Shown here: positions 5,126 to 31,218 of the stretch, piece by piece
Position numbering within the stretch: position 1 is the stretch's first letter
Layout: each line of letters opens with the position of its first letter
Source: Acutalibacteraceae bacterium
GTDB lineage: Bacteria > Bacillota > Clostridia > Oscillospirales > Acutalibacteraceae
DNA: 31,218 nt
NCBI GenBank assembly: GCA_045588405.1
Contig: JAZNEE010000122.1
Location: 1-31,218, forward strand
Direction of reading: 5' to 3'
Notes under the pieces: model-generated
What the model was told of the DNA's origin: nothing
The model's input: the letters and a program-made list of their open reading frames with translations, nothing else
The model's database searches: none
Translations under genes and position numbers: made by a program

Positions 5126-5941
5126 TTACAGATTAAGGAAATCTTTTCTGTAAGGAAGACCAAATGCCTCGATGACGTCGCGAAGCTCGGTATCGAGAAT
5201 GGTGTTAACGTGGGGCATATGAGCGGTGAGCATGTAAAGCTGTGCTGCCTTTTCAACAGTTTCGATAAGACCAAAGGTTTCGTCCATATCTTTACCTGCA
5301 CCGTAGATGCCGTGGAGACCCCAAACAACCAAGCGGTACTCTTCCATCTTCTTGGCGGTTGCAACACCGATTTCGTTATTGCCGCAAACCATCCAGGGCA
5401 AAACGCCGATACCGTCGGGGAAAACAACGATACACTCGGTGCACATCTCCCAAATGGTGTGGGTGAACTTCTTATCGTCAAGCTCGTGAACGTGAGTCAT
5501 AGCAAGAGTGTATGTAGGATGGGTGTGCATAACAACGCGGTTCATAGGATCCTTTTTAAGACGTGCCATGTGGCTCATAAGGTGTGCAGGGAACTCGCTT
5601 GTGAACTTGCCACCATCTTTATAGCCCCAAAGAAGCTCTGCAGAGGTGCCGTCCTTTGCGATACGAACAATGCCGAGGTTGGTCTCGGGATCAATTTCAA
5701 CGTTCTTGAAATATTTACCGGTACCGGTAACGATGAAAATTTTGCCGATAAGCTCGGTTGCATCAAAGCCTAAAGGAATGGTACGGATAACATTATTGAG
5801 GTCAAGGTACTCTGCAACCTGCTCGGTTTCGAGCATGTAGCTGATGTTACCGCCGTTACGTTCATCCCAACCAAGACGGTACATATTAGCGGTTGCTCTC
5901 ATCATGTCTTCAACAAAAGGTGCCTTAAAAATGTCTTTCAT
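5126..5941 (-). CDS. rhaD: Rhamnulose-1-phosphate aldolase (class II aldolase)
   Basis: GWDERNGGNIS, VTGTGKYF, PTSE-like FTSEFPAH, metal-binding HTH (MHTHPT), WGLHGI; 271 aa. Confidence 0.88.
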   Translation of the reverse strand: MKDIFKAPFVEDMMRATANMYRLGWDERNGGNISYMLETEQVAEYLDLNNVIRTIPLGFDATELIGKIFIVTGTGKYFKNVEIDPETNLGIVRIAKDGTSAELLWGYKDGGKFTSEFPAHLMSHMARLKKDPMNRVVMHTHPTYTLAMTHVHELDDKKFTHTIWEMCTECIVVFPDGIGVLPWMVCGNNEIGVATAKKMEEYRLVVWGLHGIYGAGKDMDETFGLIETVEKAAQLYMLTAHMPHVNTILDTELRDVIEAFGLPYRKDFLNL

Positions 5942-5966
5942 AATAATTCTCCTTTTATGTTAAAAA

Positions 5967-7379
5967 TTATAAACTGTTAAGTTTTTCTTCAAGAAGCTTG
6001 CGGATAACGGCAGGATCGCCAACACCCTTAAGTTCCTTCATAATAAGACCGAACAAGCCTTGCATTGCCTTTGTTTTGCCACCCTTATAGTCATCAACCG
6101 CCTTCTGATTTTCGGCAATTACGCGACAAACGGTGTCAAGCACAACGCTTTCGTCAACCTTGGCGTTAAGTCCGTTCACGTCGCAATATTTGTCAACGTC
6201 AACATCAGACTCAAACACAGCAGCAAGAACCTTTTTACCTGCAGCACGGGTGATTTCAGCCTTTTCAACAAGCTCGATGATACGAGCAAGCTTTTTAGGC
6301 TCGATAGAAAGGGTTTCAAGTCCCAAATAGTTCATTCGGCTCATACATTCGGTCAAAATCCAACCGGCAACCGCTTTGGGGTTGCAACCAAATGCAACAA
6401 CCTTATCAAAAAACTCACAAAGGGTTAAATCGGAAGCGAGAACTGCGGCATCCTTTTCGTTGATGCCCATGTCAACATACTTCTGACCCTTTTCTTCTGC
6501 CGTTGCGGGCATACTTGCTCTGATTTTCTCAAGCCAAGCATCGTCAATAACGATGGGCATAAGGTTGGGATCGGGGAAATAACGGTAATCAGCGGCGGTT
6601 TCCTTGTTACGCATAGGGAAGGTGCGACGCTTGATTTCGTCCCAACGTCTTGTTTCCTGAACAAGCATTTCGGTGCGACGTTCGATTGCATCAACGTGAC
6701 GAACCTTTTCAAACTCGATAGCGTCCTTGATTTCGGCAAACGAGCTCATATTCTTGATTTCGGAACGAACGCCAAACTCGGTTGAACCTTCGGGACGAAC
6801 TGAAATGTTAACGTCGCAACGCATTGCACCCTCTTCGCACTCGGAAATACCTGCGAACTGCAACGAAGATTTAAGCTTTTTAAGATAAGCAATAACCTCA
6901 TCCGAACTACGGAAGTCGGGCTTGGTAACTATCTCAATAAGCGGAACGCTGGTACGGTTATAGTCAACGAGCGAAGTGTTGGTTGCATCGTCGTGAACAA
7001 GCTTACCTGCGTCTTCTTCAACGTGAATCTGTTTAATGCCGATCTGTCTGCCACCAATCTCAACCGAACCCTCAACGCAAATAGGATGGAACCACTGGGT
7101 TATCTGATAAGCGGAAGGAAGGTCGGGATAGTAATAGCTCTTTTTATCAAAGGTGGTATATTGATTGATTTTGCAGTTGAGCATAAAGCCTGCCTTTACT
7201 GCCAGTTCAATAGCGTGCTTGTTGGTGACGGGCAACATACCGGGCATACCGCTGCAAGCAGGGCAAACGCAATCGTTAGGCTCATCGGCAGCAGCGTGAC
7301 CACCGCAAGAACAGAACAATTTGGAATCGGTGGCAAGTTCAACGTGGGTCTCAAGACCAATAACTAATTCGTATTTCAT
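5967..7379 (-). CDS. gatB: Asp/Glu-tRNA amidotransferase subunit B
   Basis: IGLETHVEL, YYPDLPSAYQITQ, HVEEDAGKL, DYNRTSVPLIEIV, RCDVNIS, EIKN, YRYFPDP and a YqeY-like tail. The metal-binding motifs appear intact. Confidence 0.95.
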   Translation of the reverse strand: MKYELVIGLETHVELATDSKLFCSCGGHAAADEPNDCVCPACSGMPGMLPVTNKHAIELAVKAGFMLNCKINQYTTFDKKSYYYPDLPSAYQITQWFHPICVEGSVEIGGRQIGIKQIHVEEDAGKLVHDDATNTSLVDYNRTSVPLIEIVTKPDFRSSDEVIAYLKKLKSSLQFAGISECEEGAMRCDVNISVRPEGSTEFGVRSEIKNMSSFAEIKDAIEFEKVRHVDAIERRTEMLVQETRRWDEIKRRTFPMRNKETAADYRYFPDPNLMPIVIDDAWLEKIRASMPATAEEKGQKYVDMGINEKDAAVLASDLTLCEFFDKVVAFGCNPKAVAGWILTECMSRMNYLGLETLSIEPKKLARIIELVEKAEITRAAGKKVLAAVFESDVDVDKYCDVNGLNAKVDESVVLDTVCRVIAENQKAVDDYKGGKTKAMQGLFGLIMKELKGVGDPAVIRKLLEEKLNSL

Positions 7380-19803: not shown

Positions 19804-21024
19804 ATGATTAGCAGTATAAAAGGCTTTGAAGTGCTTGATTCAAGAGGCAATCCAACCGTTGCAGCTGAGGTTACTCTTACAAGCGGAGTAAAAGCAATGG
19901 CTTTTGCCCCTTCCGGCGCTTCAACGGGCAAGTTTGAAGCACACGAATTAAGAGATGGTGGCGACCGTTTTGGTGGTAAGGGCGTTTTGACCGCGGTTAA
20001 CAACATTAACAACATTATTGCTCCTCACATTTGCTCTCTTTACACCCTTGACCAATCGGTTATTGACAACGAAATGAAAATGCTTGACGGCACCGAAAAC
20101 AAACAAAAATTAGGTGCAAATGCCATTCTTGCCGTGTCATTGGCAGTGGCACGTGCTGCTGCAAGGCAAAACAAAATACCGCTTTACAGGTATTTGGGCG
20201 GTATTGCTACCCACTCGTTGCCAAGACCGATGATGAACATTTTAAACGGTGGCGCTCACGCCGACAATACCCTTGATATTCAAGAGTTTATGATAGTCCC
20301 CAACCTTGGCTCATTTTCGGATAATCTTCGTGCCGGCACCGAAGTTTACCACGCTTTGAAGTCTATTCTCAAAAAAGACGGTAAATCGACTGCGGTTGGT
20401 GACGAGGGTGGCTTTGCGCCCGACCTTAAAGACGACCGTGAAGCCTTAGAATATATCCTCAAAGCCGTTGATTTGGTAGGATTGTCAACCGATAAAATCG
20501 GTCTTGCTTTGGACGTTGCTTCAAGCGAATGGTACAAAGACGGTCAATATTACTTGCCGAAATCCAAGCTAACCCTTTCTGCCGAGCTGTTGTCCGAGAG
20601 AATTGCCTCTTTGATTAACGATTACCCCATAATCTCGGTTGAGGACCCGCTTGCCGAAGAAGACTACGACGGTTGGGCTACGCTCACATCTCGTTTGGGC
20701 GATAAAGCGATGCTTGTCGGTGATGTCCTTTTTGTGACCAACAAAGCAAGATTGCAAGACGGTATTGATAAAAAAATTGCCAACTCGATTTTAATAAAGC
20801 TCAACCAAATCGGAACACTAAGTGAAACTTTGGATGTTATAAACCTTGCCAAAGCTAACGGATATACTCCCATTATTTCGCATCGTTCGGGCGAAACCGA
20901 GGACACCTTTATTGCCGACCTTGCGGTGGCAGTTGGTGCAGAATTTATAAAGTCGGGTGCACCCTGCCGAACTGACAGAACGGCAAAATACAACCGACTT
21001 TTGAAAATCGAAGCAGACCTTTAA
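19804..21024 (+). CDS. eno: Enolase
   Basis: LDSRGNPTV, PSGASTG, LGANAIL, QEFM, GDEGGFAP, ALDVA, SVEDP, ILIKLNQIG, SHRSGETED, KYNRLL. GDVLF replaces the usual GDDLF. Confidence 0.95.
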   Translation: MISSIKGFEVLDSRGNPTVAAEVTLTSGVKAMAFAPSGASTGKFEAHELRDGGDRFGGKGVLTAVNNINNIIAPHICSLYTLDQSVIDNEMKMLDGTENKQKLGANAILAVSLAVARAAARQNKIPLYRYLGGIATHSLPRPMMNILNGGAHADNTLDIQEFMIVPNLGSFSDNLRAGTEVYHALKSILKKDGKSTAVGDEGGFAPDLKDDREALEYILKAVDLVGLSTDKIGLALDVASSEWYKDGQYYLPKSKLTLSAELLSERIASLINDYPIISVEDPLAEEDYDGWATLTSRLGDKAMLVGDVLFVTNKARLQDGIDKKIANSILIKLNQIGTLSETLDVINLAKANGYTPIISHRSGETEDTFIADLAVAVGAEFIKSGAPCRTDRTAKYNRLLKIEADL

Positions 21025-30214: not shown

Positions 30215-31042
30215 TCACACAAACCTTTGTGCATAGCCACACCTTTTGCACAAATCCTCCGTGGCTTTGCCACATTTAAAGCCCTCTACCATATCGGTTG
30301 CCCTTTTTGATAAAAGCACCTCTTTTATATCATCCTTGAAGATGTTGCCCAAGGCTATAACACCTTCACTATCAAGGCAACAAGGAACAACGGTGCCATC
30401 ACAAAGGATGCCGAACTGGTCCTTTAGCCCATAGCAAAAGAATTTGTTGCCCTTTATTTCTGCTTCGCTATCGGGCCATTCGAACCGTTCTCCCCATTCA
30501 AGATAAATTTTATCATTAATTTTAAGTCCGCGAGTGTTTTTTACCCAATCACCCGCAATGTTTTCTTTGAGAATTTTAATTGATGCTTCGTTTTTACCGT
30601 CATCAAAACCCTTATTCCAAAGCCTTATAACCACGATTGTTCCTTTGTCGGCCGCTTTTTTTGCAAAATCTGCCACCTCGGTCACGTATGAATCGTGGTC
30701 TTGCTTGCTGCCGTTTTCAAAGCTGTGTAACGAAACGTTGATTTTGTGAAGTCCTGCGCTTAAAAGCTCGTCACCACGTCGATTTAAAAGTGTTCCGTTG
30801 GTGGTTATGATTGATTTATAGTCCTTTTCTGCCGCCATTTTCAAAAACTCGGGCAAATCGGGGTGAAGCAACGGCTCACCCATTAAATGATAATAGATAT
30901 ATTTTGTTTGTCCTTGCAGTTTTTCAAGAACAACGGCAAACTCTTCCCTTTTCATTTGCCGTTTTGCTCTTTTGTGACCATGTCAAAAAGAGCAGTTCAT
31001 ATTACAAATGTTGGTGATTTCTACATAAACCTTGTTATACAT
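30215..31042 (-). CDS. Radical SAM/SPASM-domain protein with an in-frame TGA at codon 20 (recoded CDS or pseudogene)
   Basis: From ATG 31042 (RBS AAGGAG): MYNKVYVEITNICNMNCSF*HGHKRAKRQMKREEF..., in frame with ORF 30215-30955. Also has HLMGEPLLHP, ITTNG and SPASM Cys residues (FCYG, VPCCLD, CKRC). Confidence 0.85.
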
Positions 31043-31098
31043 TGCTTCTCCTTGTCGTTTAAATTTATGTTGTGATATTTATTTGAAATGCTTTGCTT

Positions 31099-31218
31099 AA
31101 TTTTAATCATTTTATCACGATTTAAAATTGTTTGCAATAAAAAAAGATGCTCTGCTTTAAAGCAGAGCATCTTTTTTTATTGCAAACAATTTTAAATCGT
31201 GATAAAATGATTAAAATT
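31099..31218. repeat. Perfect spacer-less 120-bp palindrome ending at the last base of the window
   Basis: 31099-31158 is the exact reverse complement of 31159-31218. The core aaaaaaagatgctctgct-ttaa-agcagagcatcttttttt is terminator-like. Confidence 0.95.
31109..31137 (-). promoter_or_regulatory. Putative sigma-A promoter (extended -10) of the radical SAM gene
   Basis: TTGCAA (31137-31132), 17 nt ending in TGA, TAAAAT (31114-31109). Confidence 0.65.

Follow-up and report, generated by a model that had tools for sequence, protein, structure and literature searches.

A radical SAM gene with a stop at codon 20

The window, that is, the whole 31,218-nt stretch of DNA analysed here, is contig C122 of a MAG (G000) of 1.2 Mb in 215 contigs that is 71% complete. 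On its reverse strand lies a radical SAM gene with a SPASM/twitch domain (30215-31042, 275 codons), 91% identical to the full-length proteins P0002 and P0122, in which codon 20 is a stop. On re-reading the frame we found the start and the motif as the preliminary description had given them: from the ATG at 31042 the gene runs through C13-N-M-N-C17-S-F to a TGA at 30985-30983, after which, again as described, 255 sense codons follow before the closing TGA at 30217-30215. The CxxxCxxC motif is present in all relatives, and the codon that reads TGA for TGT in this assembly only is that of its third Cys, Cys20, the third ligand of the SAM-binding [4Fe-4S] cluster. The ORF list holds just the truncated part, a 246-aa product starting at 30955, and the public record for the locus is this same truncated product (P0005), recorded once and from the same 31,218-nt contig, so that there is no second independent copy of the TGA allele. 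Read through the stop, the product keeps both domains intact and above their Pfam cut-offs, namely Radical_SAM (residues 7-138; PF04055, 64.7 versus 29.5 bits) and SPASM (residues 203-268; PF13186, 44.9 versus 21.5 bits), and the 275-aa sequence matched no named NCBIfam equivalog.

The expression signals proposed for the gene are also in place on the reverse strand. A ribosome-binding site, AAGGAG (31048-31053), lies 5 nt 5' of the ATG and is kept in the related locus L205, and a sigma-70-type promoter, TTGCAA-17-TAAAAT with an extended -10 TG (31109-31137), has the same elements in L205 and in the close relatives L211 and L212. Upstream of the promoter is a natural terminator-like hairpin with a T tail (31139-31172, reverse strand), near-identical in L211 and L212, which was taken from the alignment and is absent from the terminator-scan list.

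The final 120 nt of the contig (31099-31218), unmentioned in the preliminary description, form a perfect palindrome with a 58-bp stem, the sole such end among the 430 in the MAG. Its outer arm (31179-31218) is a mirror copy of approximately 31099-31138. Because this outer arm is absent from L211 and L212, which do have the promoter and the inner terminator-like hairpin, it is probably a fold-back artefact of assembly. On the forward strand the palindrome also gives rise to a mirror-image match to the promoter (31180-31208). From the TGA to the fold-back contig end is 235 nt.

Codon 20 among homologues and the selenocysteine reading

Codon 20 was covered at 177 loci, not all of them independent, and reads TGT at 98, TGC at 78 and TGA at one, the window; none of the remaining 176 has an internal stop. 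The closest homologues (P0002, P0122, P0003 and P0004) and the loci L205-L212, all 90-91% identical, have TGT at this position. Ruminant-gut Clostridia supply the best homologues, and many of these carry the label Acutalibacteraceae or Eubacteriales. L211 is syntenic with the window across about 9 kb at a DNA identity of 84-92%. In L211 a phosphoglucomutase-family gene (5370-6776) stands between a DUF4097 gene and a Cys/Met metabolism gene, and is missing from the window at about 28500.

The exact family pattern ending in TGA had no match in 185,579 species genomes, in which the same pattern ending in TGY had at least 120, including Desulfobulbaceae and other Deltaproteobacteria; such exact patterns sample the diversity of radical SAM proteins only in part. 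A broader pattern, T-N-x-C-N-x-x-C-x-F/Y-TGA, run over the same 185,579 genomes, gave 35 matches, none of which continues in frame as a radical SAM protein. Five loci in other MAGs (L504, L506, L510, L519 and L521) have radical SAM-like N-termini with TGA as the third Cys codon; their frames close within 25 codons, as if the genes were frameshifted or broken, and they do not look like selenoproteins.

The preliminary description had left two options for the TGA, a CxxxCxxU selenoprotein or else a sequencing error or recent nonsense mutation. In the first, UGA20 would be read as selenocysteine (Sec), giving a radical SAM enzyme with an Se-ligated SAM-binding cluster. Of two marks of a selenoprotein gene, a UGA aligned with a conserved, here invariant, Cys is present at the locus, and a UGA in other orthologues from Sec-using genomes was seen at none of the 176 other loci.

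The best point for the Sec reading is a stable mRNA hairpin 3' of the UGA (30926-30971, reverse strand), SECIS-like by position, with a 9-bp inner stem and a 12-nt loop that opens with a G 29 nt from the UGA (-19.5 kcal/mol, z = -4.4). The bSECIS consensus model has a loop of 3-9 nt (PMC13188914). Set against a requirement for such a loop with a G, 16-37 nt from the UGA and specific to the UGA allele, the spacing and the G fit, but the loop is too long and the TGT alleles have the same hairpin. Indeed, the stem is slightly stabler in the TGT-coding L211 and L212 (-20.9 kcal/mol) and weaker in L205-L210, and 13-15% of the Cys codons in the MAG satisfy such hairpin rules by chance. The hairpin is ancestral, predating the TGA and not tied to it, and it is not conserved as a structure across the wider family.

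Nor was machinery for Sec detected. No SelA or SelD match, and no SelB match above its cut-off, was found in the MAG; the selB matches that did appear are other translational GTPases, far under the cut-off, and the only tRNA-Sec Rfam match over its cut-off (47.2 versus 47 bits) is a tRNA-Ser with anticodon TGA. A hand-made tRNA-Sec pattern gave no matches, a result of little weight. The MAG being 71% complete, a sel locus could be missing from it, and we therefore searched its relatives as well: selA, selB, selD and tRNA-Sec were found in none of 23 congeners, 17 of which are at least 90% complete, and selA in one of 300 family genomes, that one from another genus. The positive control, E. coli, was detected in every one of these searches. 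Two of the three grounds for refutation named in the preliminary description, a genome with no Sec machinery and the lack of TGA-bearing orthologues, thus speak against a selenoprotein, and we regard Sec at codon 20 as extremely improbable. Were it nevertheless true, the enzyme would offer a naturally occurring case of selenium ligation at a SAM-binding cluster, which would matter to radical SAM chemistry.

Origin of the stop

The gene itself shows no decay. The statement that it carries no other lesion was borne out, as only one of 124 near-invariant columns deviates (G74D, which is also found in four homologues). Measured against its four nearest relatives the gene has a dN/dS of 0.07-0.10, compared with 0.08-0.12 among those relatives, and its private changes comprise 21 synonymous and four non-synonymous ones. 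These values place the gene under purifying selection until now, so that a stop that is real must be of very recent origin. Such a stop, a fresh nonsense mutation inactivating a gene that the strain can do without, would end translation after 19 residues, and a product restarted at Met30 would lack CxxxCxxC and be inactive. The patchy distribution of the gene argues for this reading: the gene is accessory, found in eight of the 23 congeners, so that a real knockout is possible and would be tolerated. Neighbourhood clustering of ORFs of at least 90 aa revealed no conserved operon, partner or precursor peptide; the neighbours vary, the commonest being guaA at about 20 of the 177 loci.

A nonsense mutation might also have been templated. 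The TGA is enclosed by a quasi-palindrome (30965-30994, reverse strand), which the T-to-A change strengthens from -10.1 to -13.7 kcal/mol. Changes that perfect imperfect inverted repeats are a signature of quasipalindrome template-switch mutation (PMC7202029), and inverted repeats also trigger sequence-specific sequencer miscalls (PMC3141275); since they promote both, the quasi-palindrome cannot separate mutation from error. An equal gain in the inverted repeat is expected for approximately 1-2% of the Cys-to-TGA changes in the genome, in what was a post hoc test. A classic template switch fits poorly, because a fold-back would have to be primed by the single base pair within the mismatch; in addition, the bulged C was left uncopied.

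The rest of the assembly bears on the choice between these readings, as a scan of it flagged further in-frame stops. We compared the MAG in both directions with the nearest available congener, G022 (1.59 Mb, 81% DNA identity at htpG), over about 750 genes and 231k codons; the raw matches numbered 13 in the MAG and five in G022, from which antisense and upstream-of-start cases were removed by eye. No mid-gene stop in G022 was judged real, compared with three clear ones in the MAG: Tyr47 of rplT, encoding ribosomal protein L20 (TAY to TAG; C132:1116-1118, reverse strand; locus L416), Glu148 of nrdD (GAA to TAA; C27:1005-1007, reverse strand) and Cys373 of ygiQ, a YgiQ radical SAM gene (TIGR03904; TGC to TGA; C79:4713-4715, forward strand; locus L333). 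A stop on C30 (2971) lies inside a frameshifted ORF without an NCBIfam family match. At the htpG locus used to gauge relatedness, another congener, G005, has two equal-scoring matches on one contig (C8:11566-13365 and 33302-35101), a possible duplication or assembly repeat.

L20 is probably essential, and its gene is intact in 21 of the 21 congeners with a match, position 47 being TAT or TAC. The protein is crucial to 50S assembly (PMC1888825). The L20 stop is probably a base error and the best marker of the error load of the MAG. The ygiQ and nrdD matches in congeners have no internal stop either. The ygiQ stop falls outside that protein's CxxxCxxC motif, which is intact. The nrdD stop interrupts a 787-aa gene, one of two nrdD genes in the MAG, and it could be real rather than an error because the other copy, on C152, is intact.

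Including the radical SAM site, the four private one-base stops involve three stop codons and three residues, and all are transversions; among genuine nonsense mutations, C-to-T and G-to-A changes usually abound. With three different stop codons standing in for three residues, the four do not amount to a code, and the pattern is better explained by scattered base errors. Nonsense changes have a 4.2% share of substitutions, which, with three stops in 231k codons, would put the error rate at roughly one per 10 kb. A three-way comparison for a surplus of private missense errors, made over 367 kb of outgroup sequence, gave 63 versus 37 private changes and 12 versus 3 radical ones; since shadow ORFs and multi-base codon changes are included in the counts, we give it no weight. 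The enolase gene of the window (19804-21024, forward strand) has GDVLFVTN at the conserved Mg-binding motif, which we take to be GDDLFVTN, and was left unflagged by the radical-change filter against G022.

The recurrence of TGA at a Cys codon in ygiQ of the same MAG is a further point for Sec, and, with two of the four lesions being TGA at Cys and one lesion lying in a probably essential gene, it might also indicate unusual read-through, by a UGA-reading tRNA-Cys or general suppression, under which all four stops are tolerated. Cys-to-TGA makes up 4.6% of nonsense opportunities, however, and at least one Cys site among the three unselected stops is expected by chance about 13% of the time. TGA serves as an ordinary stop here, as had been claimed (128 of 491 long ORFs of the genome end in it), and of about 4,100 Cys codons that the census aligned only one is TGA; these two results together rule out genome-wide recoding of TGA as Cys or Trp. 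The 28 tRNAs found in the assembly include none for Cys, Gly, Lys, Asn or Ile, so that tRNA-Cys is not open to inspection, but none of the 28 has a stop anticodon. A pair of tRNA-Tyr(GTA) and tRNA-Thr(TGT) genes occurs on two contigs (C133:7471-7659 and C103:1916-2099). Against read-through, furthermore, TAG for Tyr and TAA for Glu would each require a suppressor of its own, putative genes for RF2 (with an SPF motif) and RF1 are present, and such stops occur in no congener; we consider it very improbable. It is just as improbable that both Cys-site TGAs, in this gene and in ygiQ, are real and decoded as Sec or Cys, the 29% of the genome that is missing from the assembly holding either a sel locus gained recently or a tRNA that reads UGA.

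Of the options first offered, then, the selenoprotein fell and the error or recent nonsense mutation stood, the other private stops favouring error. We infer that base 30983 is wrong rather than truly mutated: the TGA is quite likely an error of one base in the consensus of this fragmented draft MAG, which gives TGA where the cells have TGT. Consensus error is favoured over mutation by the further private one-base stops in the same MAG, that in L20 among them, and is supported by the nearby fold-back contig end together with the tendency of inverted repeats to trigger miscalls, by the absence of decay in the gene and by the fact that all four lesions are transversions. A real nonsense mutation, with neither a second lesion nor relaxed selection to accompany it, and in an assembly where the L20 stop suggests one-base errors, is doubtful but should be taken seriously. 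With consensus error preferred, the gene in living cells would most likely be whole and encode a 275-aa radical SAM/SPASM-twitch enzyme with CxxxCxxC, as in the relatives. The case is a cautionary one: a single wrong letter in a draft MAG can put a TGA at an invariant Cys, even with a G-loop hairpin behind it, and counting stops genome-wide against a relative is a quick way of exposing such errors.

The intact enzyme and known systems

The intact gene belongs to a family of uncharacterised Bacillota and Campylobacterota radical SAM/SPASM proteins (PF04055 plus PF13186, 270-290 aa) that numbers more than 7,400 proteins at E ≤ 1e-50, with Atlas clusters at 0.98-0.99. A family this large and uncharacterised is an ordinary enzymology target. 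Among the invariant residues are C13, C17 and C20, a GEP motif, and C203, C221, C222, C265 and C268, together with the likely pocket residues R25, Y50, H52, H106, R140, W142, F187 and W189. By analogy with family chemistry, Cys13, Cys17 and Cys20 would hold the [4Fe-4S] cluster responsible for cleaving SAM to the 5'-deoxyadenosyl radical, and Cys203, Cys221, Cys222, Cys265 and Cys268 would supply one auxiliary cluster. The intact enzyme probably works in the manner of a radical SAM dehydrogenase or epimerase of the twitch type, with a single auxiliary cluster.

The AlphaFold model of the intact orthologue P0002 (pLDDT 88.7) was compared with enzymes of known structure. BtrN (PDB 4M7T/4M7S), a SPASM-twitch radical SAM dehydrogenase, is its top match both by sequence (E 1.2e-10) and by fold (E 1.1e-12, TM 0.65), followed in the fold search by BlsE and SuiB; BlsE (7VOB), SpeY (7WZV) and EpeE (8AI3) are further close known systems. 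The family is similar to BtrN in size, in its CxxxCxxC core and in its short C-terminal Fe-S domain. It differs in its identity to BtrN of only about 21% and in having no antibiotic cluster or conserved operon at the gene, and with no aminoglycoside biosynthesis cluster and variable neighbours the enzyme was rejected as BtrN itself, a 2-deoxy-scyllo-inosamine dehydrogenase. Its likeliest putative chemistry resembles that of BtrN, a radical oxidation or epimerisation whose substrate would be a small sugar, an aminocyclitol or a nucleoside.

Radical SAM selenoproteins in which UGA encodes Sec are known, namely ArsS (TIGR04167), TrsS (NF045646) and the CUAEP-tail radical SAM proteins (NF040546) (PMC13188914; bioRxiv 2022.07.06.499078). 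The read-through product is far from the first two, scoring 33 against a cut-off of 300 for ArsS and 37 against 490 for TrsS. We found no description in the literature of a CxxxCxxU radical SAM protein or of a Sec-ligated SAM cluster. The Sec motifs listed are GxxU in ArsS and CU in the tail of NF040546 proteins, neither of which is the third SAM-cluster ligand, with none given for TrsS. The proteins of all three groups use Sec, whereas the genus studied here has no detected Sec machinery, and within the uncharacterised radical SAM/SPASM family, over the 177 loci, it is this copy alone that has a stop at Cys20.
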